Of a stretch of DNA of 64,000 nucleotides, positions 1 through 22,351 are shown piece after piece. Every line of letters starts with the position of its first letter. Positions within the stretch are counted from its first letter, which is position 1. The translations under genes were made by a program, and so were the position numbers. This DNA is from Candidatus Kapaibacterium sp. (GTDB lineage Bacteria; Bacteroidota; Ignavibacteria; Kapaibacteriales; UBA2268), in NCBI GenBank assembly GCA_963665665.1, contig OY762428.1, positions 1,024,001 to 1,088,000 of the forward strand, in the 5' to 3' direction. Under the pieces are notes generated by a model that saw only the letters and a list, made by a program, of their open reading frames with translations, ran no database searches and had not been told where the DNA came from.

Positions 1-981
1 ACTGATGAGGGATGGTTATACGAAGCGGTAAGAATATACGATTTAAAAGGGGAGTATCTCGGTGTTAAAACTTATGATTCTTTGTATTACACTGATTATA
101 GAACTTTAGTTATTCAGGAATTACACAAACTGGAGCAGGGCGGATATTTTGCTCTTGGCGCTTATCAGAAAGAAACAGATTTTAAACATGAGGATAAAAT
201 GTTTTTTTTCGATGATTCTGTAAATATTATTAAAAGAATAGATTTTGAAAGACCTGAAAGAGCTGTTGCAGGTACAATAGAAACTTTGAAAGATAACAAT
301 GTTATACTATTTGGAAGAATAGCTGCCATTCCCTGGGCAATTGGTCAGCCACGCGACACCAACAGGGCTTTTATATGGAAATTTGACCTGACCGGTGAAA
401 CAATATGGCTGAAGGAATACCCTACAACTTTATATTCAGTATTTTCTGCTGCTGTAGAACTTGATAACGGCGATTTGATAGCCGTCGGGAATTCAGTTTC
501 AGAGTTAGATTCAAACGTTGTTGAATTCTATCTTTTAAAAACAGATTCGGAAGGGAATGTTATATATAAAAGAACATGGGGCTATCCTGACCAGGGCGCC
601 CTGTACGATGCGCTTATTAACAGAAACGGGAATCTGGTTGTTCTCGGTAAGTTCAATAGCTATCCTTACCTTGCAGAATTTGATGTTGAAACACTTGATA
701 TTTTAAACAGAGATGATGAAAACAATTGCGCAATTAATATAAGCCCGAATCCGGCAATTAGCCAAACTGATATAAATATTAGTATAGACGATCCCGGCAA
801 CTACAGAATTGATATAGTTGACGAAACCGGGAGAATAGTAGAAAAACTGAAGAATACCTGGCTTGAAGAAGGTATATATCAAGAACAATTGGATGTATCG
901 GGTTACAATTCCGGAAGATATTTTTTGCGGCTGACAAATGATCTGATGACAATTACAAAGCTGTTGTGTATTGTTAAGTAA
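1..981 (+). CDS. Secreted beta-propeller-like protein with T9SS type-A C-terminal sorting domain (5'-partial)
   Basis: Frame is open from base 1. It has repeats like LLKTDSEGNVIYKRTWG and a C-terminal ISPNPA...GRYFLRL...TKLLCIVK T9SS-type tail. Confidence 0.75.
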   Translation, partial: TDEGWLYEAVRIYDLKGEYLGVKTYDSLYYTDYRTLVIQELHKLEQGGYFALGAYQKETDFKHEDKMFFFDDSVNIIKRIDFERPERAVAGTIETLKDNNVILFGRIAAIPWAIGQPRDTNRAFIWKFDLTGETIWLKEYPTTLYSVFSAAVELDNGDLIAVGNSVSELDSNVVEFYLLKTDSEGNVIYKRTWGYPDQGALYDALINRNGNLVVLGKFNSYPYLAEFDVETLDILNRDDENNCAINISPNPAISQTDINISIDDPGNYRIDIVDETGRIVEKLKNTWLEEGIYQEQLDVSGYNSGRYFLRLTNDLMTITKLLCIVK

Positions 982-1004
982 AGAATGCTTCCCGCCGGAA
1001 ATAC

Positions 1005-1028
1005 TCCCTGCCCTATGGCAGGGATTTT
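1005..1028 (+). terminator. Probable intrinsic terminator
   Basis: TCCCTGCC-CTAT-GGCAGGGA hairpin followed by TTTT, just after the stop at 981. Confidence 0.55.
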
Positions 1029-1218
1029 CCCGATAATTCCATTTGTATTATCAATAATAATTTCATAAAAGCTTGCAGCAATGATAATTAAAATCGGCAT
1101 TCTTACTGGTATATAAAACATATTTCATCAAATCAATAGTTCGTTGACAATTGATATACCCTTAGTATATTCCGATGCTCTTTTTCGTGGATAAATGCAC
1201 AAAGCCCCGAAGCAAAAA

Positions 1219-1282
1219 TGTCATTCTGACGGAGCGAAGCGACGAAGAATCCATCTTCCTTCGCAGATATTGTATGAAGAAT
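1219..1282. repeat. REP-like palindromic element (GTCATTCTGA...GAAGAATC family), right arm missing
   Basis: TGTCATTCTGACGGAGCGAAGCGACGAAGAATCC matches the copies at 3251-3342 and 36516-36607. Confidence 0.75.
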
Positions 1283-1529
1283 CCACCCCGTCTCGTTGCG
1301 CTCGCCACCCCTCAACGAGGGGAATTTTCCGGAACTCCACCCCCGCCCTTCGGGCACCCCTCAAGAAGGGAAGTTTTATAAAATCAGCCATCCAGAAAGC
1401 GGCGTAGCCGCGACATTTTTGTAGAAAATCGATCCCGGGATGAACAAGAGCCCCGTCGGGGCGGCATTTATATATCAGATGTCGCTCCTACGGAGCTTTT
1501 TCCCTCCTTCAGAAGGATGTGGCCGGGGG
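1280..1529. repeat. 250-bp direct repeat, copy 1 (cluster of several palindromic REP-like motifs)
   Basis: Aligns by eye to 3428-3677 with ~7 mismatches. Contains CCCCTC-AAC-GAGGGG, GCGGC-GTA-GCCGC, GCCCC-GTC-GGGGC and GCTCC-TAC-GGAGC hairpins. Confidence 0.92.
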
Positions 1530-1571
1530 GAGATAGGAAGGGGCAGAAGCAAAGAAACGATTGTTTTGGAT

Positions 1572-2047
1572 ATTGACGCCTTGGTCGGAGTTATTGATGC
1601 ATTGGTTGAAGTCAATGCACCAATGTTTTGCTTTATTGATGCCTTGGTCGGAGTCATTGCCGCCTTGTTTGAAGATAATGAACTCTTGGTCGAAGTCATT
1701 GACGCCTTGGTCGAAGTCATTGATGCCTTGTTTAGAGGCAAAGTACAGATGTTCGAAGTCATTGATGCCTTGTTTAGAGGCAAAGTACAGATGTTCGAAG
1801 TCATTGCTACCTTGGTCAGAGGCAAAACACCAATGTTTGACGCCATTGCACCAATGTTTGATTTTATTGTTGCCTTGATCGGAGTCATTGACGCCTTGTT
1901 CGGAGTCATTGATGCTTTGTTTAGGGGCAAAGTAATGATATTTGACATTATTGCTGCCTTGTTTTACTTCAAAGCCCTCTCCTTCGGGGAGGGTTTGGGA
2001 GGGGTCGAAGTTATTGCACAGATGTTTTATTCAATTGCTGCCTTGTT
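1572..2047 (-). repeat. Tandem 21/42-bp repeat array (left arm)
   Basis: Units such as ATTGATGCCTTGGTCGAAGTC and ATTGATGCCTTGTTTAGAGGCAAAGTACAGATGTTCGAAGTC. The overlapping ORFs called here are probably products of the repeat periodicity. Confidence 0.85.
1971..2006. repeat. REP-like element (CCCTCTCC-TTCG-GGGAGGG family) embedded in the tandem array
   Basis: AAAGCCCTCTCCTTCGGGGAGGGTTTGGGAGGGGTC. Its reverse complement resembles 33226-33278. Confidence 0.7.
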
Positions 2048-2089
2048 TTGGGGTAATGATTGCTTGTGTAGCGTTGGAATCCGGAATAT

Positions 2090-2595
2090 TTAATTGATTG
2101 TATTATTTATAATATTTGAATAATAAAATATATCATAAGAATTAGTAAATATTTAAGTGTTTGTAGTAAATATATTTATCAGATTATTAAATAATCATAT
2201 AAATTTACAATATTAATAATATAACTAATCAAATAAATAATTCAAACAAGTCATTAATCACTCCATTTTATTATTTATTATTCTTTATTTATAAAATATA
2301 TTAAAGATCTAAGAATATATTTAATTACTCTAACAAATTAGAAATACTGATTAATTAGTAGGTTAATACTAATATTTAATAGTTCATAAAATTAATTTAA
2401 TAAATCATATCAATTATTTAATTATATATATAAAATATTTAGTTATACATATAAAAAGTTTTGTTAGATGAACTATATCAAGGCTTGGATATGTTATATA
2501 TATTATTATAAATACTATATATTTGTTATAATTAGTATAATATTTAATATTTTAGATTGAATATTTAATTATTAGTTTTATTTATATACTATTCT
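2090..2595. other. Extremely AT-rich non-coding core
   Basis: Almost only A/T by eye, and no ORF in the six-frame track. Confidence 0.8.
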
Positions 2596-2622
2596 CATTT
2601 GTATCTTTGGGATTTCAATGCC

Positions 2623-3048
2623 AAACAAGCAAGCAATGAGGCGGAACAAGCAAGCAATGAGGCGGAACAAGCAAGCAATGAGGCAAGACAAGCGTACAAT
2701 AAGGCCAAACAAACATGCAGTAAGGCGGAACAAGCATGCAATGAAGTAGAACACGACAACAGTAAGGCGGAACAAGCATGCAATGAAGTAGAACACGACA
2801 ACAGTAAGGCGGAACAAGCATGCAATGAAGTAGAACACGACAACAGTAAGGCGAAACAAGCATGCAATGAAGCAGAACAAGACATCAGTAAAGCGGAACA
2901 AGCATGCAATGAAGTAGAACACGACAACAGTAAGGCGAAACAAGCATGCAATGAAGCCAAACAAGACATCAGTAATGTGGAACAAGTGAGCAATGAAGCA
3001 GAACAAGACATCAGTAAGGCCAAATTTCACTACATTAAGGCCAAACAG
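2623..3048 (+). repeat. Tandem 21/42-bp repeat array (right arm); could encode a heptad-repeat peptide (ORF 2599-3051)
   Basis: Units CAAGCAAGCAATGAGGCGGAA and CAAGCATGCAATGAAGTAGAACACGACAACAGTAAGGCGGAA, translating as QACNEVEHDNSKAE. Confidence 0.85.
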
Positions 3049-3250
3049 TAGTTCAATACCTCCGGACAAGGCAGTTTAAAGCCCTGCCAACAAAGCAATT
3101 AGCCCAAACATCAGGATTCTGGTTCAAAACAGCGTTGAAATAAGGAAATTATTCGATTCATTGAAACCACAGGATGGGGAATTAAGGCCGGCGGTTGGTT
3201 CATTGGGGTGGAAAAACGGGGGGTAAGGGCCGGAGAAGGAGGTATTATGT

Positions 3251-3342
3251 TGTCTTTCTGAAAGAGCGAAGCGACAGAAGAATCCATCTTTGTTCGCAGA
3301 TAGTGTGTGAAGAATGGATTCTTCGCTGGCGCTCAGAATGAC
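3251..3342. repeat. REP-like palindromic element, complete copy
   Basis: TGTCTTTCTGA...GAAGAATCCAT...ATGGATTCTTC...TCAGAATGAC inverted arms. Confidence 0.8.
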
Positions 3343-3427
3343 CTTCCAGCCTTATAATCGTCAAAATCAATAGCCACGTGCTTTAGCTCGTGGATAATAA
3401 TGCAAGGTTCGGAAACTAAGAAAAAGA

Positions 3428-3677
3428 AATCCACCCCGTCTCGCTGCGCTCGCCACCCCTCAACGAGGGGAATTTTCCGGAACTTCACCCCCGCCCTTCG
3501 GGTACCCCTCAAGAAGGGAAGTTTTATAAAATCAGCCATCCAGAAAGCGGCGTAGCCGCGACATTTTTGTAGAAAATCGATCCCGGGATGAACAACAGCC
3601 CCGTCGGGGCGGCATTTATATATCAGATGTCGCTCCTACGGAGCTTTTTCCCTTCTTCAGAAGGAGGGGGCCGGGGG
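3428..3677. repeat. 250-bp direct repeat, copy 2
   Basis: Near-identical to 1280-1529, offset 2148 bp. Confidence 0.92.
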
Positions 3678-3828
3678 TTACGATGCTAAGTAACATTTTA
3701 ATTCTCCATACCTTATAAAGCAAGATGTAACGTTCTTGTTCCTGATATTAGATATTATACAATACAGTGCAATATATTTTTTTACTTTATAATATTTTTT
3801 TAATTTGCAGAAAGAATTTGGAGATAGG

Positions 3829-4030
3829 ATGAAAAAATTACTTGGAAAAACTTACGTCTCTACACCAGAGATAGCAGAGCAATTAGGATATAACTTTCAG
3901 ACTATCCGTAGGTGGCGTAATGATGAAACCATACCTGCTAAAAATTGGCAAAGAATGTTTAGTTTTGGAAGAAGATTATCAGGCATTTTTAAAGGAAAAA
4001 CTCAGCCAGAATGACAACAAAAAAGGCTGA
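3829..4030 (+). pseudogene. Frameshifted excisionase-like (HTH_17/MerR-type) DNA-binding protein
   Basis: MKKLLGKTYVSTPEIAEQLGYNFQTIRRWRNDETIPAK, then after a frameshift in the A-run at 3940-3944, IGKECLVLEEDYQAFLKEKLSQNDNKKG*. This is the typical Xis-like 'IPA.KIG..W.V...D...FL' pattern. Confidence 0.7.
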
Positions 4031-4163
4031 CAAAATGACATAGAGTCACGAATCGGGCACGAAGCCGCAAAGCAGGAATATTATAATCCCTTTAAATTTT
4101 AGGATTATAGAAATGCACAACACAATTAATTGACAATTGTACAATATAATACGGGTTATATAA

Positions 4164-5252
4164 ATGGCTGGAATAAATGACAGTACGATCAGAGAGGCCC
4201 TGACCAATGTAAACGATCCGGACCTCGGACAAAACATCGTTGACCTGGATTTCATTTCCAATATTGATATAAATAACAATTCGCTTACCGTTGACCTGGA
4301 AATCACAGGCCCGGCGCATATAGCCGCCGAAAAAATCCAGACTGACTGCGTGAATGTTCTGAAAGACTACGCAGCAGATTTGAAAATTACAGTAAACGTA
4401 ACCGAAAAGCCATTCGAGAAAAAAGGTAACGGCCCGCTGGACGGCGTTAAGAATATTATCGCTATAGCTTCCGGCAAGGGCGGGGTTGGTAAATCAGCAG
4501 TGTCTTCCAATCTTGCTGCTGCTTTATCACTAACCGGTGCAAAAGTTGGTATTCTGGACGGAGATATTTACGGCCCGAGCCAACCAACGATGTTTGGCCT
4601 TAATGATGCTTCTCTCCAGGCTATTCAGGACGAAAACGGTAAAAATATTACCTTCCCTGCAGATAAATACGGTATCAAAGTAGCATCAATGGGTTTTATA
4701 ATTAACCGTGATGAAGCTGCTATCGTTCGCGGCCCGATGCTGGCAGGATATTTCTCAATGCTCTTTGAGCAGGTTCACTGGGGAGACCTCGATTATCTGA
4801 TCTTCGACCTGCCTCCCGGCACAGGTGATATTCAGCTGACACTTACACAGAAAATTCCTCTGACCGGTTCGGTAATCGTTACTACACCACAGGAAATTTC
4901 CGTGGCAGATGTCAGGCGCAGCATTGCCATGTTCAAGCGCGTTAACGTTGATATAATGGGCGTAATAGAAAACATGAGTTATTTCGTTCCACCGGATATG
5001 CCCGACAAAAAATACTATATCTTCGGCGAAGGCGGCGGTCGCAAAGAAGCTGATGAGAAAGGCATTAACTTCCTTGGTGAAATACCACTCTTCATGGGCT
5101 TCCGTGAAAGCAATGATAATGGTATGCCATACGTGCTTCGTGAGGATGCAGGGCATCACGGTGAAGTAATTAAAGAAATTGCTGCAAAAATGGTTTCCGA
5201 AACAAGGAAGAAAAACCATGGCGGAGCAGAAGATCTGGATATTGAACTCTAA
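4164..5252 (+). CDS. mrp: Mrp/NBP35 (ApbC) Fe-S cluster carrier ATPase with N-terminal MIP18/DUF59 domain
   Basis: ASGKGGVGKS deviant Walker A, plus DGDIYGPS, DLPPGTGD, VTTPQ and ENMSYF motifs. Confidence 0.93.
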   Translation: MAGINDSTIREALTNVNDPDLGQNIVDLDFISNIDINNNSLTVDLEITGPAHIAAEKIQTDCVNVLKDYAADLKITVNVTEKPFEKKGNGPLDGVKNIIAIASGKGGVGKSAVSSNLAAALSLTGAKVGILDGDIYGPSQPTMFGLNDASLQAIQDENGKNITFPADKYGIKVASMGFIINRDEAAIVRGPMLAGYFSMLFEQVHWGDLDYLIFDLPPGTGDIQLTLTQKIPLTGSVIVTTPQEISVADVRRSIAMFKRVNVDIMGVIENMSYFVPPDMPDKKYYIFGEGGGRKEADEKGINFLGEIPLFMGFRESNDNGMPYVLREDAGHHGEVIKEIAAKMVSETRKKNHGGAEDLDIEL

Positions 5253-5497
5253 TGTCCGATACAGAAAATATTATCGCCCGCATTCATAAGGCTATTGAAG
5301 AAATACGGCCTTATCTTGCCGAGGATGGCGGAAACATCGAGTTTGTCCGCTGGGAAGAAGAAACGGGCGTGGTAGAAATACGATTCCTGGGGCAGTGCAT
5401 TGACTGCCCCATGGCTATTATGACGCTCAGAGCCGGAATTGAAAGAGTCCTTCTGAACCGTGTTCCGGAAGCCAGGCGGATAGAAGCTGTAAAGTGA
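5252..5497 (+). CDS. NifU C-terminal/NfuA-like Fe-S scaffold protein
   Basis: IRPYLAEDGGNIEFV...FLGQCIDCPMAIMTLRAGIE; translationally coupled to mrp. Confidence 0.9.
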   Translation: MSDTENIIARIHKAIEEIRPYLAEDGGNIEFVRWEEETGVVEIRFLGQCIDCPMAIMTLRAGIERVLLNRVPEARRIEAVK

Positions 5498-5526
5498 AAT
5501 ATTTTTTCCAGACTTGAAAAAAAGTG

Positions 5527-5558
5527 TTTGGCAGATTAAAATAATCTCCGTAAATTTG
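5527..5558 (+). promoter_or_regulatory. Putative Bacteroidota-type promoter for the tRNA cluster
   Basis: TTTG (-33), 20 nt, TAAATTTG (TAnnTTTG, -7), ending 13 nt before tRNA-Val. Confidence 0.55.
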
Positions 5559-5571
5559 TATCTCACTTGAG

Positions 5572-5646
5572 GGGCGAGTAGCTCAGTTGGTCTAGAGCAC
5601 CTGCCTTACAAGCAGGGGGTCGGGAGTTCGACTCTCTCCTCGCCCA
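5572..5646 (+). tRNA. tRNA-Val(TAC), copy 1
   Basis: GGGCGAG/CTCGCCC acceptor, GCTC/GAGC D-stem, CCTGC-CTTACAA-GCAGG anticodon arm, GGGAG-TTCGACT-CTCTC T-arm. Confidence 0.96.
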
Positions 5647-5774
5647 CAAGAAACCTCAGTGATTCATTTGCCGGGGTTTTGTTTTTTGAAAAAGGATTTG
5701 GACTGATGATAGGTTCGTGGGTTTTGTGGCCTTGCGCCCATTGTCTATCGCCTCGGGCAGCCAAAAAGTTCTTT

Positions 5775-5859
5775 GCAGAAGTGGCGGAATTGGTAGACGC
5801 GCTAGACTCAAAATCTGGTGGCCTTTACGGTCGTGTGGGTTCGAGTCCCACCTTCTGTA
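5775..5859 (+). tRNA. tRNA-Leu(CAA), copy 1
   Basis: GCAGAAG/CTTCTGT acceptor, CTAGA-CTCAAAA-TCTGG anticodon arm, long variable arm, GTGGG-TTCGAGT-CCCAC T-arm. Confidence 0.95.
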
Positions 5860-5878
5860 CAAATTGAAAATTTATTCC

Positions 5879-5953
5879 GGGCGAGTAGCTCAGTTGGTCT
5901 AGAGCACCTGCCTTACAAGCAGGGGGTCGGGAGTTCGACTCTCTCCTCGCCCA
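5879..5953 (+). tRNA. tRNA-Val(TAC), copy 2
   Basis: Identical to 5572-5646. Confidence 0.96.
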
Positions 5954-6922
5954 CAAGTAAAGAGATATTCTTAATTGAATATCTCTTTTTCTTTTATATA
6001 GCAGCTTGATTTTTTTCATCTTATACAATTAGTGATCTCTCGCCCCGTGTCTTACGCACGATCGGGAGTTCGACTCTCGCCTCGCCCACAAGAAAAACCT
6101 CTGAAACGGGGTTTTGTTTTTTGAAACAGGATTTGGACTGATGATAGGTTCGTGGGTTTTGTGGTCTCTTGCCCCGTGTCTTACGCACGATCGGGAGTTC
6201 GACTATCTCCTCGCCCACAAGAAAACCTCAGTATTTTTATGCTGAGGTTTTTTTATTTTCTCTCGCCCCGTGTCTTAACGCACGGTCGGGAGTTCGACTC
6301 TCTTATCGCCAACCATCAAATAAGCTTCGATACATCGATATCGAGGCTTTTTGCGTTTTAGTATTTCCTCTGGTCCTTCGCCCCGTGTCTTAACGCAGCC
6401 TCGGGTGTTCGACTCTCGCCTCGCCAACCATCAAATAAGCTTCGATACATTGATATCGAGGCTTTTTTGCGTTTTAGTAGATATTATGGTCTCTCGCCCC
6501 GTGTCTTAACGCACGCTCGGGAGTTATCCCTCCTCGCCCACAAGAAACCTCAGTGATTCATTTGTCGGGGTTTTGTTTTTTGAAAAAGGATTTGGACTGA
6601 TGATAGGTTCGTGGGTTTTGTGGTCTCGCGCCCCGTGTCTTAACGCACGATCGGGAGTTCGACTCTCTCCTCGCCCACAAGAAACCTCAGTGATTCATTT
6701 GCCGGGGTTTTGTTTTTTGAAAAAGGATTTGGACTGATGATAGGTTCGTGGGTTTTGTGGTCTCGCGCCCCGTGTCTTAACGCACGATCGGGAGTTCGAC
6801 TCTCTCCTCGCCCACAAGAAAAACCTCTGAAACGGGGTTTTGTTTTTTGAAAAATAATGGTTCTCGCGGGTTTATGGTCTTGCGCCCATTGTCTATCGCC
6901 TCGGGCAGCCAAAAAGTTCTTT

Positions 6923-7007
6923 GCAGAAGTGGCGGAATTGGTAGACGCGCTAGACTCAAAATCTGGTGGCCTTTACGGTCGTGTGGGTTCGAGTCCCACC
7001 TTCTGTA
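6923..7007 (+). tRNA. tRNA-Leu(CAA), copy 2
   Basis: Identical to 5775-5859. Confidence 0.95.
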
Positions 7008-7026
7008 CAAATTGAAAATTTATTCC

Positions 7027-7104
7027 GGGCGAGTAGCTCAGTTGGTCTAGAGCACCTGCCTTACAAGCAGGGGGTCGGGAGTTCGACTCTCTCCTCGCCC
7101 ACCA
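7027..7104 (+). tRNA. tRNA-Val(TAC), copy 3, with genomically encoded CCA
   Basis: Identical body to the other Val copies; ends CTCGCCC-A-CCA. Confidence 0.96.
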
Positions 7105-7982
7105 TCAAATAAGCTTCGATATATCGATATCGAGGCTTTTTGCGTTTTAGTAGATATTATAGTCTCTCGCCCCGTGTCTTACGCACGATCGGGAGTTCGA
7201 CTCTCTCCTCGCCCACAAGAAAACCTCAGTATTTTTATGCTGAGGTTTTTTTATTTTCTCGCGCCCCGTGTCTTAACGCACGATCGGGAGTTCGACTCTC
7301 GCCTCGCCCACAAGAAAAACCTCTGAAACGGGGTTTTGTTTTTTGAAACAGGATTTGGACTGATGATAGGTTCGTGGGTTTTGTGGTCTCTTGCCCCGTG
7401 TCTTACGCACGATCGGGAGTTCGACTCTCTCCTCGCGCACAAGAAAACCTCAGTATTTTTATATGCTGAGGTTTTTTTATTTTCTCTCGCCCCGTGTCTT
7501 AACGCACGGTCGGGTGTTCGACTCTCTCCTCGCCCACAAGAAACCTCAGTGATTCATTTGCCGGGGTTTTGTTTTTTGAAAAAGGATTTGGACTGATGAT
7601 AGGTTCGTGGGTTTTGTGGTCTCGCGCCCCGTGTCTTAACGCACGATCGGGAGTTCGACTCTCGCCTCGCCCACAAGTAAAGAGATATTCTTAATTGAAT
7701 ATCTCTTTTTCTTTTATATAGCAGCTTGATTTTTTTCATCTTATACAATTAGTGATCTCTCGCCCCGTGTCTTAACGCACGATCGGGAGTTCGACTCTCG
7801 CCTCGCCCAGCAAAAATAAGTGAATAAAATTTATCACTTCTAAATTCAAAATGCGATTAAAATATTTACATAATCCCAAGAAAGGTTATTATCGATTTTT
7901 CAGAAATAAAGTTAGAATCTTTATTATTGAATAAATTTTTTGTATATTATTATTTAATGTTTTATCAAATGGAGGAAAGCCC

Positions 7983-8402
7983 ATGAGAGACTTTATTGGC
8001 ATTAGCCGAAAGGAATTAACAGTTTATTTCATTGTTGTAATTGCTTTAGCGATAATTCCACTATTTATTGTTATGAACTACAGTTTTTTTATTGATGATT
8101 ATGGCAAACCAAACATGGTACTAATTGGCTTTTACGATTTTTTTGCAGTATTGGGTAGCCTGCAGCTTTTTGGAATTCGTATCGCCAGCCTTGTGATATT
8201 AATAATAGCCGAAAGAAGGTTGGAAAATCCAAACTACTGGTGGGCAGCAGCCGGGTTAGTATTTGGTTTTATTGCAGTAATTGCATATATGGCCTGGTTT
8301 GTTATCAACCGCCTGAATATTATCTCCAACCCAGAGGACAACAATCAAAGTTTAATTGAAAATATTAAAAATTTTGTTAGAAAGGTAAGATCATGGACCT
8401 GA
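7983..8402 (+). CDS. Hypothetical 3-TM membrane protein
   Basis: GGAGG RBS upstream, three hydrophobic segments, resembles the next ORF. Confidence 0.7.
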   Translation: MRDFIGISRKELTVYFIVVIALAIIPLFIVMNYSFFIDDYGKPNMVLIGFYDFFAVLGSLQLFGIRIASLVILIIAERRLENPNYWWAAAGLVFGFIAVIAYMAWFVINRLNIISNPEDNNQSLIENIKNFVRKVRSWT

Positions 8403-8746
8403 CAAAAAAAGAAATAATGATATACGCTATAATTGTTATTATTTGTACCGCTCTTCCACAAATAATAATGTATTATCCGACAATATTTATGCTGACACAC
8501 AGCACTGGCGAACCTATGAACCATAATATCATAAATTTATATTCCCCGGTAAAATGGACTTGTATGCTGCTGCTTCATCTGTCATCTGCTGTTTTAATTG
8601 TCCTTGCAGAAAAAAGAAAAGGCGGCAAAGTTTCTGCAATTGCTGTTCTGCTTGGGCTTTTCCTGAACTTTCCAGGCTTTATAGCTTATATGATCTGGCA
8701 GGTAATTGATAGAAAAAAACTATTTCTGGATGATATGGAAGCATGA
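8393..8746 (+). CDS. Hypothetical 3-TM membrane protein (paralog of upstream ORF)
   Basis: LTKKEIMIYAIIVII vs ISRKELTVYFIVVIA, and IAYMIWQVIDR vs IAYMAWFVINR. Confidence 0.7.
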   Translation: MDLTKKEIMIYAIIVIICTALPQIIMYYPTIFMLTHSTGEPMNHNIINLYSPVKWTCMLLLHLSSAVLIVLAEKRKGGKVSAIAVLLGLFLNFPGFIAYMIWQVIDRKKLFLDDMEA

Positions 8747-8963
8747 AAATGCGATACAATATAATTTTTGTTATTAATCAATATTTGTATTGACTTGATT
8801 ACAGATCAAAACAATTGTAAAGTGCATTTTTATGACATATCAATTTGAATTGGAATAAAATTCAATCAATTTATTTATAATATTTCTTTCCATTTTTCAA
8901 AATAATTGATAATTTGGTAAGATGTAATCGGGGGTAAATTACCAAAATATACCGGGAAAAATC

Positions 8964-10781
8964 ATGAGAATTGTTCATTTAGTTTTGATTATCACTATCC
9001 TATCATTCTTTTCATGCCAATATGAGCCAACCGGAGTTAACCATCTTGAAGTGGATTCTGAAGCTACGACTCCTGTGATGACGATTGATTTCGATGGAAA
9101 CAATGACACATTAATTATAGACGGGCCTACTTATCTGCGTTTTAAATATTCTACCGGAGATAAGAACCTGAATTTTGCTTATACTTTTATTGACAGCAAT
9201 GAAATTAATTCAAAGCTTATTGACGATGATTACATCGAATGTTATTTAGCTCCACAAAATATCGGATCCGGGTCTTACGAATTTACTGTATTGCTGTTCT
9301 CAAATTCTCAGACAGGCAGCATTGCTGACCTTTTAAAACTCGAAGGATTTTTATTTGCCAGAACATGGACACTCATCGTTATTAACAAATCCGACATGAC
9401 TCCTGAAATTACCGGCTATGAAATTGAAAACGGATTACTTAAACTCAATTTCAACCAAAGCAATCCGGAACTAATATCCGAATATATACTTAATAAAAGA
9501 TTATGGTATGTTGAAAGCAGAGCAGTCGCAACAGAAACGGACCCGGAAAAAAGATTCATTTTCGATGACTCTTATGTTGGGGAAAAGGCTACTTATGTGC
9601 TCATTTCAAAAACAGTTTTCGGCTATGAACTGGAATCTAAAATATTCTCTATAAATAATAATTTACCGAGTGTTACAACGGAAAACTATTCTTCTTTTGA
9701 TGAAATTCATTATCAATGGGAAAAATGTCCATACTACAACGCATTTGAAGCATATAAAATCACTCTTCCCGGTGGTGAAGAAAAAATTATAAACGATATT
9801 GATCAGACCAGCGGGGTTTTTAACTCTATATTTGGTAAAAATGTAAGGTTTAACATCACTTTGATACCAAAGAACAAGCCGGATAATTTCGAAGAAATAT
9901 CAGACAGATATACCGTTGAAACCTATTTGTCTCCTGGTGAAACTCTCCCTCATTCGGGTATTCCATTCAGAATCGGAAATAAACTTTATATCCCACAAAG
10001 TTATAGCTGGATTAAGTATGATCCTGTAAGGAATATTTCATCATCAACAATTTGTTTCCCATCCGGACAAATAAGTTGTTCCTATACACAGAACGGAAAA
10101 TATGCTTTTATTGGGTACGCTCACGACCATCAGTTAATATTTTTCGAACCGGAAACAGCTGTATCAATGAATCCTATCAAAACTGAAAGCCTTGTAGGTG
10201 AAGAAATATTTATCTTGGAATCTGTTTTGTCTGACAATGGAATTGCAGGTTTCGGTCATTCAGATGGTGATCTGTATTTGTATGATTTTCCTAATAATAA
10301 GTTCATTGGAACAGTTGATATTGAATATGATATCAGGGGACTTGCAATATCTTCCGGAGGGAAATATTTACTTGTTGAAGATTTTGCAAGAACAAGATTA
10401 TTCGATATAGGTGATGATATAGTTGAGTCAGACAGATTGCAGGAAATAAAAAGCGGAACTTTTGACGAAATGCAATTCCTGACAACCGATCCGGATCTAT
10501 TTATATTTAAAGAATATGGAAAATTTAGAATTATTAATGCTAAAACTGCCGAGGAGGTTTCTTCTTTTGAAGTTGATAATAATGAAGATATTGTTTATTA
10601 CGACCTGATTAATAACAGATTAGTAACAAACGACCGTAATTATATACGAATATATAACTTTCTGACCGGCGAACAGATTTCAGATGATATCCCTCATGAT
10701 CTCAGATATGACCAAAACGGCTGTGTGCTGATCGGTGATTATCTATATGTTGAAGGCGGAAAAAGAGTGAAGGTGTTTTAA
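8964..10781 (+). CDS. Lipoprotein with C-terminal beta-propeller-like region
   Basis: Lipobox FFSC after a hydrophobic signal; WD/YVTN-like repeats (GLAISSGGKYLLV). Confidence 0.7.
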   Translation: MRIVHLVLIITILSFFSCQYEPTGVNHLEVDSEATTPVMTIDFDGNNDTLIIDGPTYLRFKYSTGDKNLNFAYTFIDSNEINSKLIDDDYIECYLAPQNIGSGSYEFTVLLFSNSQTGSIADLLKLEGFLFARTWTLIVINKSDMTPEITGYEIENGLLKLNFNQSNPELISEYILNKRLWYVESRAVATETDPEKRFIFDDSYVGEKATYVLISKTVFGYELESKIFSINNNLPSVTTENYSSFDEIHYQWEKCPYYNAFEAYKITLPGGEEKIINDIDQTSGVFNSIFGKNVRFNITLIPKNKPDNFEEISDRYTVETYLSPGETLPHSGIPFRIGNKLYIPQSYSWIKYDPVRNISSSTICFPSGQISCSYTQNGKYAFIGYAHDHQLIFFEPETAVSMNPIKTESLVGEEIFILESVLSDNGIAGFGHSDGDLYLYDFPNNKFIGTVDIEYDIRGLAISSGGKYLLVEDFARTRLFDIGDDIVESDRLQEIKSGTFDEMQFLTTDPDLFIFKEYGKFRIINAKTAEEVSSFEVDNNEDIVYYDLINNRLVTNDRNYIRIYNFLTGEQISDDIPHDLRYDQNGCVLIGDYLYVEGGKRVKVF

Positions 10782-10782
10782 A

Positions 10783-11520
10783 ATGAAAAAATTAATTACA
10801 ACATTGCTGTTTATCTGTTTAGGTATTGTTGAAATGCATTCCCAGATAAGCATAAGTTTGCAAACAGGATATAATACGGTTGAAAAACCAAATCTGAATG
10901 AATTGAACCAGTCCTTACTGGAAGCACTTCCCTTTCAGGCAGGAATTGTTGATGATTTTCCTGATTATGTTTACTTCCAGGGAGCTTTTCTGATTTACCT
11001 TCAGAATTTTGATTGGGGTATTAATATGGCATATACATCAACCGGATCCAGAATCAGTTATGAGGATTACTCAGGAAATTACACACAGGACAATTTTGTT
11101 TCGGCCTTCAATATTGGTTTTTTAATTCAAAAGAGATTTAGATTATCCGGTAAGCACCAGGGAATAATATTTCTTGAAGGAGGATCGGTCATATCATTTC
11201 TAACAATAGAAGAGAACATCCTGATAGGGGAAGTAAACGAGAATTACAAATATGATTTTGAAAATACATCTTTTTATATCTCTCCGGGTATTAAATACCA
11301 ATACCCGGTTTATGACTTCCTACGTGTTGGATTAAGCCTGTCATATTTCTTAGATTTGAACAAGGAATATCATTTAAAAAACAATGACAATGCCATATTA
11401 ACATTAGAAAATAGCGGAACAAAAGTAAAAAGCAACTGGGATGGAATAAGATTTGGCATTTTGGCTGAGTTTTATATCAAGTCCATTTTCAAAATCGAAG
11501 AACCAGAGTACGGTATATAG
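10783..11520 (+). CDS. Outer-membrane beta-barrel protein
   Basis: Signal peptide, alternating aromatic strands, C-terminal WDGIRFGILAEFY. Confidence 0.65.
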   Translation: MKKLITTLLFICLGIVEMHSQISISLQTGYNTVEKPNLNELNQSLLEALPFQAGIVDDFPDYVYFQGAFLIYLQNFDWGINMAYTSTGSRISYEDYSGNYTQDNFVSAFNIGFLIQKRFRLSGKHQGIIFLEGGSVISFLTIEENILIGEVNENYKYDFENTSFYISPGIKYQYPVYDFLRVGLSLSYFLDLNKEYHLKNNDNAILTLENSGTKVKSNWDGIRFGILAEFYIKSIFKIEEPEYGI

Positions 11521-11597
11521 TTTTTAAACACTTACTGATTGGCTACTACTAAGCAGAAATGGAAAATATGTCAGATGTTAAAAAAATACCAAAAAAA

Positions 11598-11668
11598 TGT
11601 CACTTTGACCGCAGCGAAAAAACCTAATCAGCATGAATAGTGGATTATTCACTTCTTTCAAAATGACA
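11598..11668. repeat. Degenerate GTCA...TGAC REP-like element
   Basis: TGTCACTTTGA...TCAAAATGACA arms resemble the 3251 and 36516 copies. Confidence 0.5.
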
Positions 11669-11733
11669 ATTCACAAGAATTCAGAACAAAGAGTCTTCTC
11701 GTAAATTAAGAATAAAAAAAAATTTCAAAAAAT

Positions 11734-13458
11734 TTAATCCAGCAACCCAATCTTAATAGATACACGGCGTTTGAATTCATTGTCGCGGGTTTCGCGGGTA
11801 TCTACTCCCATGCCTTCCACTTCCCATACAATATGGTCTTTTACAATCTGGTAGTCGGCGCGCTTTTCAAGTCGGCTCATCAGGAAACGGGCAGTAAAAT
11901 ATGCACGCAATTCTGATAAAACGATATTATCAACCTTTGCACCCCTCTCCACAACAAGGCCTGTGGCGGGATCGTCGATACCCGGGCCGCTGTACCTGGC
12001 AGCCGGGGATATCGGCCTTGGATCGGCAAATCCCCTAATGGTTATACCGAGTTTATCGCCAGAATCGGCGCATTTACCGCCGAAATAATCAAGCCTTTCC
12101 AGGATAAAATTCACAGCGTCTGCAAGAGCTTCGTCAACAACTTTGGCAAAGCCGTCATATTCCTCGCCCGGCCTTTCGATATACGAAGTGGAATCTGCAC
12201 TGCCAACCAGGTTGTATGCAAATTTCAGCCTCAGGTCCTGCAGGTTATCAGTTGTATTAGGCAGGTAATATCCAGACACAAAGAACGGCACATTATACTG
12301 CTCGAACGAAAACTCATTTTGCAATTCCGGTATCCTGAAATTCACATTCATAACCACAACAGAAGTGTCCGAGCATGGTGCTTTTATAATCTGTACAGCT
12401 CTTGATTCCGGCAGACAGTGATTGGAATAAACTATCCTGTATGAATCTCCCGGCACGGCTGTGAAGTTAAAATTACCGAAAAACGTACTTTCACCCTCAA
12501 GTAGCAGGTTATCAGATTTATCAAAGACTTTATAATCACCGGTAAGCATCATTCCCGATGGAGGTTCTTGCAGCTTGCAGCGCACAATTACCGGTCCGCA
12601 AAGTTCCATGGAGTATATATCGAATCCACCACAGCCCTCGTTCCTGTCGGAACTGAAATATATCATTTTCTCGGTCACAAGGGGGTATTTCTCATCACTG
12701 TCGCTGTTTATCGGGAATGTCAGAACCATCGATTCTTCAGGATCCATAAAATTCCTTGCTTTTAGCAGGTCGAAGTCACCTTTATCGGTGAAACCGTTCG
12801 AGGAATAATATAGAACTCCGTTGCGGTCTATAAAGGGTGTCATCTCGTCGCCGGGCGAGTTTACCGATTCGCCAAGGTTTTTCGGCTCGGACCACTTGCC
12901 GGAAGACCTATTATAATGAGATATATACAGGTCGGTTCCGCCAAAGCCGTCCGGCCTTTCGCTGGTAAATACAATATGGGCGCCGTCGGGAGATATTGCC
13001 GGATGAGACTCATACCCAGGCGAATTGATTCCGCTAAGAGGAATAAGCGAGTTGCCGGAAATTTCGAACAGGTCGCTGTGCATCTGTCTGCCCTGCCGAA
13101 CAATCGAAGCGGCATATTTTTTTACATCGTCTCCGGAATTTAAAACCGAACCTATCACGACGCTGCTTCCTTCCACCGGAACCATCGAATTTTCCGGTAT
13201 GGCATTTGAATTGCCATCAGCAAAGAATTTAACTGAATAATATTCGAAATTTCTTTCTTCCATCCTGTCCGACGCAAAAACAAGTTTATTTCCAATCATA
13301 ATCGGTGCAATTTCATCAGCCGGAGAATTCACGGCCTCGCCAAGATTACCGTTGGTGGTATGTTCAGGGCACACCCCCGGCTGCGTTGTTTTGCATGAGG
13401 ATAAAATAATTGTGAGTATGAATATGGCGGCAAATCCGTTTGCGATAAAATTCTTCAT
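11734..13458 (-). CDS. Lipoprotein with PD40 (TolB-like) repeats and OmpA-like C-terminal region
   Basis: Lipobox ILSSC; INSPGYESHPAISPDGAHIVFTSER and GFGGTDLY repeats; C-terminal IRGFAD...LSELRA...RRVSI. Confidence 0.75.
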   Translation of the reverse strand: MKNFIANGFAAIFILTIILSSCKTTQPGVCPEHTTNGNLGEAVNSPADEIAPIMIGNKLVFASDRMEERNFEYYSVKFFADGNSNAIPENSMVPVEGSSVVIGSVLNSGDDVKKYAASIVRQGRQMHSDLFEISGNSLIPLSGINSPGYESHPAISPDGAHIVFTSERPDGFGGTDLYISHYNRSSGKWSEPKNLGESVNSPGDEMTPFIDRNGVLYYSSNGFTDKGDFDLLKARNFMDPEESMVLTFPINSDSDEKYPLVTEKMIYFSSDRNEGCGGFDIYSMELCGPVIVRCKLQEPPSGMMLTGDYKVFDKSDNLLLEGESTFFGNFNFTAVPGDSYRIVYSNHCLPESRAVQIIKAPCSDTSVVVMNVNFRIPELQNEFSFEQYNVPFFVSGYYLPNTTDNLQDLRLKFAYNLVGSADSTSYIERPGEEYDGFAKVVDEALADAVNFILERLDYFGGKCADSGDKLGITIRGFADPRPISPAARYSGPGIDDPATGLVVERGAKVDNIVLSELRAYFTARFLMSRLEKRADYQIVKDHIVWEVEGMGVDTRETRDNEFKRRVSIKIGLLD

Positions 13459-13603
13459 CCTTCAATTCCTGTTCTAGAAAAAAAATTTTAAATTAAAATA
13501 TAAAAAAAATCAATCAGTTCCATACATTTGTAATAATAATAATGTCAGTTTCCGAAAAAACCGGATTTTTTTGATTTATCGGCAGTAAGAGGTAGAAACT
13601 TAA

Positions 13604-14782
13604 ATGAGAGCAACCAGAGCTTTGGTAAACCTGAACAATTTGAAGCACAACCTGGAACAGATTAAAGCAACAGCCCCCGGCAAAAAAATAATTGGTGTGG
13701 TTAAAGCCAATGCTTACGGCCACGGAATTATTGAAATTTCCAGGTTCCTGGAAAAACAGGACGTGGACTTTCTCGGAGTGGGCTACCCCGAAGAAGGGAT
13801 AAAACTTCGCAAAGCCGGGATAACCAAGCCGATTATCGTTCTGGTGGCTGCTCAAAAGGAATCTGCCTACCTTTTCGTTAAATACAATCTGGAAGCGGTA
13901 ATATCCAATTTATCATTCCTGGAATCGATAAATGAGAAAGCCGCCAAATACGGAATAATTATCAGGGCGCACCTGTTTATCAATACAGGTATGAACCGCG
14001 AAGGTATTCAACCGGACCAAGCCCATGAATTCATGAAAAAAGCGGAAAAGCTTAAAAACATTAATCTGGCCGGACTGACTACCCACCTTTCCACATCCGA
14101 CCTCAGGGACGACGATAATATCCGCGACCAGCTTAATATCTTCAATGATACACTGAACCGGCTGAAAAACTCCGGGCACAGTTTTGAATTTGTTCATACT
14201 GCCAACAGCGGAGCGGTTCTGAACTATAAAAACTCCCAGTTCAACACTATCAGGCCGGGGATTGCCATGTATGGTTATGATATATCAATCATCCCAAACC
14301 GGCACATCCCGCTTAAACCGGTAATGGAAATTCAAAGCAAAATTGCCCTGACAAGGGATGTTTCACCCGGAAATTACGTGGGCTATAGCCGCTCTTACGA
14401 AGCAAGAAAGGCGCTGAGAATAGCCGTGATACCGATCGGTTACGGCGACGGCTACCCGTATTCGCTCAGTCATAAGGCTGAATGCATTATCAAAGGCAGG
14501 CGCTGCCCGATAGTCGGCACGGTATGTATGGATCAGTTTATGGTTGATATTGGCGACGCTGATTTCCAGCCCGGAGACAAAGTAACAATTATCGGCCAGA
14601 ATGGTGATGAAGAAATAACAGTTTCGGAACTGGCTGCACGTGCCGGAACATTGAAATACGAGATACTCACATCCATTGCCGAGAGGATTCCCAGGGTCTA
14701 TATCAAACCCAAAATGACGAGGAAATTATCGCAAAACCTAGCCAATTCCGGAAAAGAAGCCCTTGAGCATACTGATTATTGA
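13604..14782 (+). CDS. alr: Alanine racemase
   Basis: VVKANAYGHG (PLP lysine), NTGMNREG, HTANSG, RPGIAMYG, IGYGDGY, GTVCMDQ. Confidence 0.96.
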   Translation: MRATRALVNLNNLKHNLEQIKATAPGKKIIGVVKANAYGHGIIEISRFLEKQDVDFLGVGYPEEGIKLRKAGITKPIIVLVAAQKESAYLFVKYNLEAVISNLSFLESINEKAAKYGIIIRAHLFINTGMNREGIQPDQAHEFMKKAEKLKNINLAGLTTHLSTSDLRDDDNIRDQLNIFNDTLNRLKNSGHSFEFVHTANSGAVLNYKNSQFNTIRPGIAMYGYDISIIPNRHIPLKPVMEIQSKIALTRDVSPGNYVGYSRSYEARKALRIAVIPIGYGDGYPYSLSHKAECIIKGRRCPIVGTVCMDQFMVDIGDADFQPGDKVTIIGQNGDEEITVSELAARAGTLKYEILTSIAERIPRVYIKPKMTRKLSQNLANSGKEALEHTDY

Positions 14783-21247: not shown

Positions 21248-22351
21248 TTACCATTTTTCAACATCCTTATAATAATTAATATCTGCTTCAATCTCTTCAA
21301 TAGTCGGTAATGACCCTTTCAAATCATCAGGTAATATTTCAGTAAGAGTAAAATCACTAACTCCCATAGGTTTATTAATTCCCCTGAGCGCAAATTCTGT
21401 CTCAATTTTATTCTTTCCACGACATAACAGAATACCTATCGTCTGATTTTCATTTTCAGTTTTCAGCAGACTGTCAACAGCTGAAAGATAGAAGTTAAGT
21501 TTTCCGGCATACTCCGGAATAAATCTGGTATTCTTTAATTCAATAACTACATAGCATTTTAGTTTTATATGATAAAAGAGCAAATCGATATAGTAATCAG
21601 AATCACCTATATGGATATGGTACTGACGCCCGATAAAAGCAAACCCTTTTCCCAATTCGAGCATAAAATTGCTAATATGATCTATCAATTTATTTTCAAT
21701 TTCACGTTCGTTAAATGGCTTTGTTATTGAAAGAAAATCAAATGTATATGGGTCTTTAAGGGTTTGTTCGGCAAGGTCTGACTGTGGTAAGTCAAGTGTA
21801 TCTTTAAAATTTGTTATCGCCGCTCCCTGCCTTGCAAACAGGCTTGTTTGTATCTGTAATGCAAGCACATTCCTGCTCCACCCATGTTCAATAGCTTTAT
21901 TTACATAAAAAATCAGTTCAGGCAATTCTTTAACTTTACCTGTCAACAATTTAATATGGCCCCATGGCAGCTTCCTGATTGACTTATATAAATCAGTTTG
22001 TTTAATAATCGTAAATTTGTCCCCAGTTTGGGGACTAATTGAAACCTGACTTTCGTCCCCGGTTTGGGGACTATTTGCCAGATATTTGTAAAACAATCTG
22101 CAATATTTCAGGTTAGTAAGCGAAAAGCCCTGTATATCAGGAAATTCCTTTCTCAGATCTGATGATAATTGATCAAGAAACTTGCTGCCCCATTCTGCAT
22201 CTTTCTCTGCTATCATCCGCCCAATATCGAAATAAAAATCAATAAGCACGCTGTTTGCTGACAAAGCAGCTTTTAACCTTGCCGACCGAATCGCAGATTT
22301 TATTTCTTTAATCCAGATTTTATAATTTTCTGTTTTTATAAATTTCTTCAT
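21248..22351 (-). CDS. YhcG/DUF1016 PD-(D/E)XK nuclease family protein
   Basis: KDPYTFDFL, ELGKGFAFIGRQ, IDLLFYH..LKCYVVIELK, GKLNFYLSAVD. Confidence 0.92.
   Translation of the reverse strand: MKKFIKTENYKIWIKEIKSAIRSARLKAALSANSVLIDFYFDIGRMIAEKDAEWGSKFLDQLSSDLRKEFPDIQGFSLTNLKYCRLFYKYLANSPQTGDESQVSISPQTGDKFTIIKQTDLYKSIRKLPWGHIKLLTGKVKELPELIFYVNKAIEHGWSRNVLALQIQTSLFARQGAAITNFKDTLDLPQSDLAEQTLKDPYTFDFLSITKPFNEREIENKLIDHISNFMLELGKGFAFIGRQYHIHIGDSDYYIDLLFYHIKLKCYVVIELKNTRFIPEYAGKLNFYLSAVDSLLKTENENQTIGILLCRGKNKIETEFALRGINKPMGVSDFTLTEILPDDLKGSLPTIEEIEADINYYKDVEKW

Follow-up and report, generated by a model that had tools for sequence, protein, structure and literature searches.

Why should a bacterial chromosome carry a long run of partial tRNA genes in which one arm of the tRNA has been exchanged for an unrelated hairpin? 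The question is raised by a 64,000-nucleotide stretch of the Candidatus Kapaibacterium sp. genome (GTDB lineage Bacteria; Bacteroidota; Ignavibacteria; Kapaibacteriales; UBA2268; assembly GCA_963665665.1, contig OY762428.1, positions 1,024,001 to 1,088,000, forward strand). We call this whole stretch the window, and positions refer to it unless another frame is named. Here, intact genes for tRNA-Val(TAC) and tRNA-Leu(CAA) are interleaved with truncated tRNA-Val copies, the first of which (6033-6088) is the feature under study. An initial annotation had regarded positions 6041-6088 as a tRNA mimic with a rebuilt anticodon-like hairpin; the sequence there is indeed as it described (TCGCCCCGTGTCTTACGCACGATCGGGAGTTCGACTCTCGCCTCGCCCA), and its count of 13 truncated copies was confirmed. 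In this report, we conclude that the feature is very probably a non-functional partial-gene repeat at the level of DNA, that is, a decayed 3' fragment of tRNA-Val(TAC). A fuller reading, to which we give about an even chance, adds that the array is a member, without an open reading frame (ORF) of its own, of a class of arm-substituted tRNA fragments linked to GIY-YIG genes.

Anatomy of the truncated unit

Each unit opens, at its 5' end, with what is left of the D loop (GGTCT..). A hairpin then occupies the slot of the anticodon arm, and after it come the variable loop, in shortened form, and then the T arm and 3' acceptor strand. The 5' acceptor strand and the D arm are missing, as initially annotated, and the D loop is reduced to the GGTCT remnant. 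The sequence upstream of the unit is C-rich like the 3' acceptor strand and is not complementary to it. The substitute hairpin measures 15-16 nt, or about 25 nt with the outer CCC/GGG, and has the stem CGTGT/GCACG. Its loop is CTTAC (5 nt) in four copies and CTTAAC (6 nt) in nine, and a CTCKCGCCC-like motif stands ahead of it in every copy; the position of the hairpin, its loop of 5-6 nt and the preceding motif all agree with the earlier description.

The block of identity with the 3' end of tRNA-Val is 27-28 nt long and runs from TCGGG to the discriminator. Both the T arm and the acceptor strand had been called intact. This holds for the three copies that retain the native sequence from TCGGG to the discriminator (6622-6677, 6759-6814 and 7160-7215) and fails for the others, which bear G-G, U-U or G-A mismatches in the T arm, a deletion in the T loop, or other variants. 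The three intact tRNA-Val genes, by comparison, are identical to one another. A search with the T-arm pattern GGGWGTTCGACTMTC, allowing three mismatches or fewer, gave 15 matches in the window (shuffle mean 2.23, maximum 6), which are the three intact tRNA-Val genes and 12 truncated copies; the thirteenth copy (6485-6540), with its T-loop deletion, was located by its acceptor end rather than by this pattern. The copy number of 13 comes from one single-contig assembly.

The units as tRNA or structured RNA

The units do not behave as tRNA genes. ARAGORN calls only five genes in the array, tRNA-Val(TAC) three times and tRNA-Leu(CAA) twice, and none of the 13 units. The Rfam tRNA model (RF00005) likewise recovers the five real genes and matches no unit even at E<=10. 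The units have no acceptor stem of paired 5' and 3' strands, no D arm and no 7-nt anticodon loop with U33, the loop being 5 or 6 nt long.

Nor does the alignment of the 13 copies give a sign of RNA structure under selection. A covariation check on these copies showed a compensatory change in none of 10 pairs, and no pair has changed on both sides, either in the tRNA-like structure or in an alternative long hairpin. The T stem is paired in 85% of cells, with one G-U and nine broken cells as departures. Folding energies are close to those of shuffles (z = -0.18, -0.66 and +0.38). In the minimum-free-energy (MFE) folds of 10 of the 13 copies, the 5' strand of the T stem pairs with the upstream CUCUCG or CCC; this is the fold expected of the CCCG..CGGG palindrome abutting the T arm that had been put forward as the alternative to a selected RNA. 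Diverged homologues that could have informed the covariation analysis were not found in 40 other genomes or in genome and metagenome contig collections, and Rfam holds no family for arm-substituted tRNA fragments. The units are non-coding and are not tRNAs; they are decaying, and none has its own promoter motif.

Arm-for-hairpin fragments at other loci of this genome

The exchange of a tRNA arm for a hairpin recurs at two other tRNA loci of this genome (G000, contig C1, to which the coordinates in this section refer). One is the tRNA-Ser(GCT) locus at 1891309-1892458 on the minus strand (L110, L119). Upstream of the gene lie four identical 84-bp units, each composed of the first 27 nt of the tRNA, TCCCGA-TGCAA-TCGGGA in the slot of the anticodon arm, and 7 nt of the variable arm. 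Downstream are two units of 369 bp, each with an 81-aa GIY-YIG ORF that runs into a tRNA 3' fragment; these fragments start in the D loop and again carry TCCCGA-TGCAA-TCGGGA in the anticodon-arm slot. The locus also shows the style of junction seen with SegB of phage T6, in which microhomology links the tRNA to the nuclease gene at its 3' end. Both tRNA-Ser 3' fragments are miscalled by ARAGORN as tRNA-Cys(GCA).

The other locus is tRNA-Ala(TGC), which in both rRNA operons is followed by tandem 41-nt units, two at 2679068-2679149 and four at 3515054-3515217. Each reads CTGGATGTCG + TCCCGATTCATCGGGA + TCAGATCCA + CAAGTT, and the hairpin TCCCGATTCATCGGGA takes the place of the T arm. Because they lie inside rRNA operons, these units are presumably transcribed.

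Hairpins of the form TCCCGA..TCGGGA number 56 genome-wide, and the sole one in the window is at window positions 33247-33262. Of the 56, 26 lie within a larger and well-conserved dispersed repeat that extends over about 100 nt or more and is REP- or MITE-like in appearance; this number is the count, over both strands, of the 16-mer TCCCGACACGTCGGGA.

Partial tRNA copies of other kinds are present as well. Three classical island signatures were seen, at tRNA-Asn(GTT) (1404484/1430561), tRNA-Thr(CGT) (1535831/1519324) and tRNA-Arg(ACG) (4020921/4044865); each has one exact copy of 43-45 nt, from position 30 or 33 of the tRNA to its 3' end, 16-26 kb away. A lone 3' fragment of tRNA-Pro(TGG) lies at 2198967.

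GIY-YIG genes and tRNA fragments across the phylum

Homologues of the 81-aa GIY-YIG ORF of the tRNA-Ser locus were found in 150 of 301 sampled genomes of the phylum, often in tandem. Of the 29 best loci, 24 have a same-strand tRNA gene no more than about 250 nt away, which is upstream in 21 cases and just downstream in three; the other five, where no tRNA was called, represent the interior of an array or the end of a contig. The neighbouring tRNA genes are of many isotypes (loci L111-L118, L121, L123 and L133-L161). A script identified extra tRNA 5' or 3' pieces with a hairpin in place of an arm at 15 of 33 loci, and inspection by eye added four. In one other genus, three of five genomes have the tRNA-Ser design, its stem unchanged and its loops different. 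Tandem GIY-YIG arrays reach at least 14 copies at about 299 bp (G277), five at 382 bp (G246) and eight at about 343 bp (G436), and every unit that was read in G277 and G246 holds a tRNA 3' fragment with a hairpin in an arm slot. At one locus (L150, in G229), ARAGORN calls two arm-substituted tRNA-Ala fragments as tRNA-Pro(AGG).

Most pertinent to the present array are two tRNA-Val(TAC) loci, from two other families, that possess a small single-domain GIY-YIG gene. The locus in G314 comprises two 5' units, the tRNA gene, the ORF and a 3' fragment. That in G264 comprises the tRNA gene, a terminator, an ORF-less 3' fragment directly after the gene, and then the ORF. At both loci the 3' fragments begin within the D loop, with a hairpin standing in for the anticodon arm, and the units of the window align collinearly both with the Val genes and with these fragments. 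The window units display the features of the class: a start in the D loop (weak), a hairpin in the arm slot, a collinear remainder, and tandem repetition. As judged from these alignments, their layout is one held in common with the fragments that flank GIY-YIG genes. Since further tRNA loci and further genomes show it too, the array is not a one-off.

The best solved relatives of the GIY-YIG ORF are the UPF0213 proteins BH0048 and EF2693, with SLX1 a weaker match. At three loci, L159 (G277), L135 (G314) and L111 (G128), the ORF starts 2-4 nt past the 3' end of the tRNA or fragment. Given this spacing, tRNA 3' processing could release an almost leaderless GIY-YIG mRNA, which we offer as an idea only. 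A literature search found no description of GIY-YIG genes beside tRNA genes with arm-substituted fragments, although the supplements of the Ssn and SegB papers discussed below could bear on this novelty.

Origin of the hairpin

The 5' half of the unit is homologous to the leaders of the two tRNA-Leu genes up to TCGGG, where it switches to the T arm of tRNA-Val. Alignment of the inner hairpin region with the Leu leader gave p values of 0.008-0.013 against shuffles. Copy 4 is intermediate between the units and the leader, having CCTT and GCCTCGGG in common with the leader; the relationship to the leader, and copy 4 as the nearest, had been noticed initially, and the alignment bears this out. The GGTCT start (as in the D loop) and the TCGGG end are common to the unit, the Leu leader and the native D/anticodon region.

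It had also been remarked that the stem differs in sequence from the native anticodon stem with its pairing kept. The stem is indeed intact in 12 of 13 copies, the exception being copy 4 (6372-6427), with GCAGC. As an argument for a rebuilt anticodon stem, however, the remark depends on one changed pair, and the region fits the Leu leader better. A different connection is suggested by the cassette-associated tRNA-Val(TAC) gene of G314 (L135, G314:C27), where the changed pair is the native one; the native anticodon stem of that gene (CGTGC/GCACG) is the module stem CGTGY/GCACG and differs from the unit hairpin by one C>T. The hairpin may have been derived from a foreign Val allele like that of G314. 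Since this allele occurs in only one of the 301 phylum genomes, we leave the idea as an unproven lead.

Organization of the array

The whole array (5551-7809, forward strand) contains one promoter motif, three tRNA-Val(TAC) genes, two tRNA-Leu(CAA) genes and the 13 truncated units, with spacers of five types that bear terminators; the region of tRNA genes and truncated units itself is 5572-7809. It opens with the -7 promoter-type motif TAAATTTG (5551-5558), the sole exact TAnnTTTG in 5400-8000, which lies 21 nt before the first intact tRNA-Val (5572-5647; found by ARAGORN and, at 72.1 bits, by the Rfam tRNA model). Then come the first tRNA-Leu leader (5728-5757), a homologue of the unit 5' half (GGCCTTGCGCCC..TCGGG) that stops where the T arm would begin, the first tRNA-Leu (5775-5860) and the second intact tRNA-Val (5879-5954), both genes recognized by ARAGORN and Rfam.

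Seven truncated units follow. Unit 1 (6033-6088; loop CTTAC) has CTCGC as the 3' strand of its T stem, which creates a G-G mismatch; unit 2 (6162-6217; loop CTTAC) has lost a T-stem pair to a C>A change. Unit 3 (6257-6312) has the GCACGG variant and the acceptor end ATCGCCAA. Unit 4 (6372-6427), the one closest to the Leu leader and with the broken hairpin, also shows GGGTG and the acceptor end TCGCCAA, and unit 5 (6485-6540) is the copy with the T-loop deletion. Unit 6 (6622-6677) has the T arm and acceptor of the native gene, and unit 7 (6759-6814) has the same sequence as unit 6. The series is then interrupted by the second tRNA-Leu leader (6876-6905), again a homologue of the unit 5' half, the second tRNA-Leu (6923-7008) and the third intact tRNA-Val (7027-7104), in which CCA is encoded; both genes are recognized by ARAGORN and Rfam. 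Beyond them lie unit 8 (7160-7215; loop CTTAC, T arm and acceptor native), unit 9 (7255-7310; CTCGC variant), unit 10 (7384-7439; loop CTTAC, acceptor TCGCGCA), unit 11 (7481-7536; GCACGG and GGGTG variants), unit 12 (7618-7673; CTCGC variant) and the final copy, unit 13 (7754-7809), after which the sequence passes into a unique AT-rich flank.

Apart from this last unit, each of the other 12 is followed by one of the five recurring spacer types, and the types that stand behind truncated units are also found behind intact Val genes. Eleven distinct terminator-like sites lie in series, nine after truncated units and two after Val genes; the type-A spacer, although missed by the terminator scan, folds as a hairpin with a U run. 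The truncated units are spaced by 95-137 nt, their lengths are not multiples of 3, and they have no common reading frame. A CRISPR-like or coding array was considered and rejected because the spacers are of five repeated types and the unit lengths are out of frame. The spacers are mosaic, and there is a higher-order duplication, in which the A'-unit-B-unit block at 6089-6312 is repeated at 7311-7536 with the same unit variants.

Genome-wide, TAnnTTTG lies within 80 nt upstream of 31 of the 52 tRNA genes, against 0.04 expected per gene. In the array it occurs once only, before the first tRNA-Val. A scan for sigma-70 promoters was uninformative (five found, 3.8 expected).

Distribution and variation between samples

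The unit hairpin occurs nowhere else in this 5.46-Mb genome. A 121-nt unit query matched nine of 40 other genomes, solely in the T-arm and acceptor regions of the relatives' own tRNA-Val and never in the hairpin. Exact patterns of hairpin plus T arm gave no match in genome and metagenome contigs, among which the genome itself and its near relatives were possibly not included. The hairpin alone with GCCC gave 32 single hits in the genome collection (unrelated taxa) and 53 in metagenomes (no taxon), all of which we take as chance matches, judged without inspection of each one. In one relative the NifU-Val-Leu synteny is preserved, with several Val copies, all of them full. The adjacency of Val and Leu is ancestral, being seen at six of eight relative loci and, by eye, in G008.

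The units of the array appear to have been rearranged between strains. Contigs from two other samples (X4 and X6) join 6507 to 7775, 6531 to 7801, and 7478 to 6035; these are short-read contigs, none of which spans the array. In the X6 contig, two units also end differently in the acceptor, with AA for CC at 6309-6311 and 7806-7807. Contigs from what is probably the source sample have no differences at 5400-5601, 5792-5908, 6261-6559, 6823-6965, 7073-7192, 7526-7612 and 7780-8000, and one difference over 5928-6065.

Surroundings of the array

A T9SS sorting domain is encoded at 82-981; from this domain and the Bacteroidetes-type -7 motif TAnnTTTG, we take the organism to belong to the FCB group. 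Directly after the array, 7983-11520 contains four ORFs (139, 117, 605 and 245 aa) of low GC (32-35%). None has a Pfam, PHROG or convincing NCBIfam match, save for a weak match of the 245-aa ORF to an outer-membrane beta-barrel. The segment may be an old insertion at the tRNA locus. Ten ORFs lying no farther than about 12 kb from the array were tested against defence-system models (E<=1e-5), and none matched; the nearest defence match, a PADLOC PDC-S02 candidate at 21248-22351 on the minus strand (E 1e-137), lies 13 kb away, and no link between the two was seen.

Interpretation and alternative explanations

We propose that break repair or illegitimate recombination in the Val-Leu cluster gave rise to a partial Val copy with a hairpin in its anticodon slot, and that unequal homologous recombination between the units would have amplified and reshuffled the array. 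As an old copy, the array would have lost the ORF or been without it from the start. By analogy with T6 SegB, breaks made by GIY-YIG nucleases at the hairpin or in tRNA DNA could drive such duplications. A still broader proposal, possible in our estimation although doubtful, is that the phylum harbours an undescribed selfish or domesticated element: a minimal single-domain GIY-YIG gene (Ssn/UPF0213-like) next to a tRNA, usually immediately 3' of it, that spreads by break-induced duplication of tRNA segments. The duplicated pieces would carry the nuclease's hairpin in place of one arm, which would leave them inert and possibly immune to re-cutting, and the Val array would be the largest ORF-less fossil in the genome.

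Several observations weigh against joining the Val array to the GIY-YIG-linked class, or against regarding it as inert. Neither a GIY-YIG ORF nor a remnant of one is found in or near the array; the six PF01541 matches in the genome (E<=0.01) lie elsewhere. The hairpin of the units is not of the TCCCGA..TCGGGA type and is not dispersed, and the array has no 5' fragments upstream, unlike the tRNA-Ser locus and the Val locus of G314. Homology of the units to the D loop is weak (10 of 13 copies, by eye), and the inner hairpin region aligns with the native D/anticodon region at p values of only 0.08-0.39 against shuffles. That the T arm decays and the hairpin stem persists, in 12 of 13 copies, could be a mark of selection on the hairpin, or just of recent amplification of one variant. 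The involvement of a nuclease is wholly inferred, and the units may be expressed as RNA.

Could the array be an ordinary relic of unequal crossover, with no connection to GIY-YIG genes or hairpin elements? In that event, microhomology at TCGGG would have joined a Leu leader to the T arm of the next Val gene, deleting tRNA-Leu and the 5' two-thirds of tRNA-Val; the chimera would have been amplified in the manner of the 178-bp repeats after tyrV of E. coli, and the hairpin would be a leader that happens to pair. The alignment of the unit 5' half with the Leu leader, which diverges exactly after TCGGG, the intermediate character of copy 4, the ancestral adjacency of Val and Leu, and the precedent of the tRNA-Tyr 3'-end repeats of E. 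coli K-12 all agree with this account. What it leaves unexplained is why a layout with a D-loop start, a hairpin exactly in the anticodon slot, and a retained variable loop and T arm should recur, both at two further tRNA loci in this genome and at the Val(TAC) loci of two other families; moreover, the Leu leader may itself be a truncated unit. We consider a crossover relic of this sort unlikely. An att-site remnant is, in our view, very unlikely. Here, the T loop of tRNA-Val would have served an integrase-type element as its attachment site, the hairpin-bearing 5' half of the unit would be the arm of that element, and amplification would have come later. The block of identity, which runs from the T stem to the 3' end of the tRNA, is like att sites of the T-loop type, a class that reportedly goes back to Williams in 2002; the genome does possess three island duplicates of the classical kind, and low-GC ORFs without family matches lie directly after the array. 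Yet the 11 ORFs tested at 82-14782 yielded no integrase domain, and neither an integrase nor an island separates the intact from the partial copies. There are 13 copies in close tandem rather than one at a far island end, the arm of the unit has no other copy in the genome, and the three real islands follow another pattern, duplicating their tRNA genes from position 30 or 33 onwards.

The selected tRNA-like RNA of the initial annotation fares little better, and we hold it to be quite unlikely. Transcribed units could serve as processing signals, as RttR-like small RNAs or as decoys for tRNA-targeting enzymes. To its credit, the stem of the hairpin is kept in nearly every copy and its variation falls in the loop; hairpins of about the size of the replaced arm recur in many loci and genomes; the tRNA-Ala units sit inside rRNA operons; and the tyrT repeats of E. 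coli carry the annotation of a small RNA, RttR. The units, however, lack an acceptor stem and with it the minihelix that RNase P, RNase Z, the CCA-adding enzyme and the synthetases need. The T stems are broken, covariation is absent, folding is no better than in shuffles, the Rfam tRNA model does not match, acceptor ends differ between strains, and a single promoter motif is followed by terminators in series. For a decoy, it is the anticodon loop, the target of anticodon nucleases, that is missing. We return to a decayed, DNA-level repeat of partial tRNA-Val genes, with a putative GIY-YIG connection, as the best explanation.

On its own, the array is a curiosity and an annotation trap, as its sister fragments, miscalled by ARAGORN as tRNA-Cys(GCA) and tRNA-Pro(AGG), make plain. 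Its value is as a lead: a GIY-YIG ORF is present in half of the sampled phylum genomes, with nearly all of the best loci beside tRNA genes. If the duplications are nuclease-driven, the SegB accordion and the Ssn hairpin nucleases would be extended to bacterial chromosomes and to their tRNA and rRNA loci, a source of instability at tRNA loci would be explained, and many natural pairs of nuclease and hairpin would be on offer.

Comparison with known systems

Tandem repeats of tRNA 3' ends are already known from the tyrT operon of E. coli, where they are classically ascribed to unequal recombination. The distal repeats of tyrT-tyrV (rttR/tpr) resemble the present array in that tandem units, each with the 3' end of the gene, follow a tRNA gene; in E. 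coli K-12, the 19-nt tRNA-Tyr 3' end occurs six times, three of them at 178-nt spacing downstream of tyrV. The Val units differ in their make-up, with 27-28 nt of tRNA joined to a D-loop remnant and an anticodon-slot hairpin, and in their 13 copies, which are interleaved with intact genes and all but the last of which are followed by a terminator-bearing spacer. The tyrT units are annotated as a small RNA (RttR) plus a small ORF, whereas the Val units are known here from DNA alone. Our search of the literature on truncated tRNA tandem repeats and tyrT repeats yielded nothing useful.

Partial tRNA genes are also left by integrating mobile elements. In the accessible text of PMC9897764, such 3' copies are single and lie at the far end of islands of 9-23 kb. 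The Val units share with them the presence of partial 3' copies near an intact gene, as in the three such cases of this genome, but they stand in tandem at 95-137 nt, lack an integrase and have an internal arm replaced. Repetitive extragenic palindromes (REP elements) and their RAYT proteins offer a further comparison, the palindromes being short, dispersed, often clustered and sometimes found flanking the gene of the cognate enzyme (PMC3733652, in the portion available). RAYTs are HUH tyrosine transposases rather than GIY-YIG proteins, and that portion of PMC3733652 describes no replacement of tRNA arms.

The GIY-YIG nuclease SegB of phage T6 is a closer parallel. According to the part of PMC13096335 open to us, SegB cuts inside tRNA genes, which leads to recombination-dependent, unstable tandem amplification, and the repeats have microhomology junctions between the tRNA and the 3' end of the nuclease gene. 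The likeness lies in a GIY-YIG gene beside tRNA genes and in the style of junction, which is matched by the tRNA-Ser locus here. The differences are equally clear: in T6, as that part of the paper relates, a phage amplifies full-length, functional tRNA as an anti-defence dosage response, whereas the present copies are chromosomal and truncated, have a hairpin in place of an arm, and in the Val array have no nuclease gene.

Finally, the Ssn proteins are single-domain GIY-YIG nucleases that, in the available text of PMC11893778, are flanked by hairpin repeats (NTS/SRM) and cut these as single-stranded DNA. Small GIY-YIG genes with hairpin repeats of 20-50 nt on both sides and dispersed in the genome recall the situation here, with its 56 TCCCGA..TCGGGA hairpins, and the NTS core as printed there contains TCCCG..CGGGA. 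The main text of PMC11893778 mentions tRNA 0 times, and what we could consult of it includes neither hairpins inside tRNA fragments nor nuclease genes that usually lie directly 3' of a tRNA. The ORFs of the phylum are at most candidate relatives of Ssn; their best solved relatives are the UPF0213 proteins. The Val hairpin, at 15-16 nt and confined to its array, departs from the 20-50 nt dispersed repeats of the Ssn systems, and in the Val array no such gene adjoins it. The adjacency of nuclease gene and hairpin repeat that is typical of those systems is found instead at the tRNA-Ser locus of this genome and at the two tRNA-Val loci elsewhere in the phylum.

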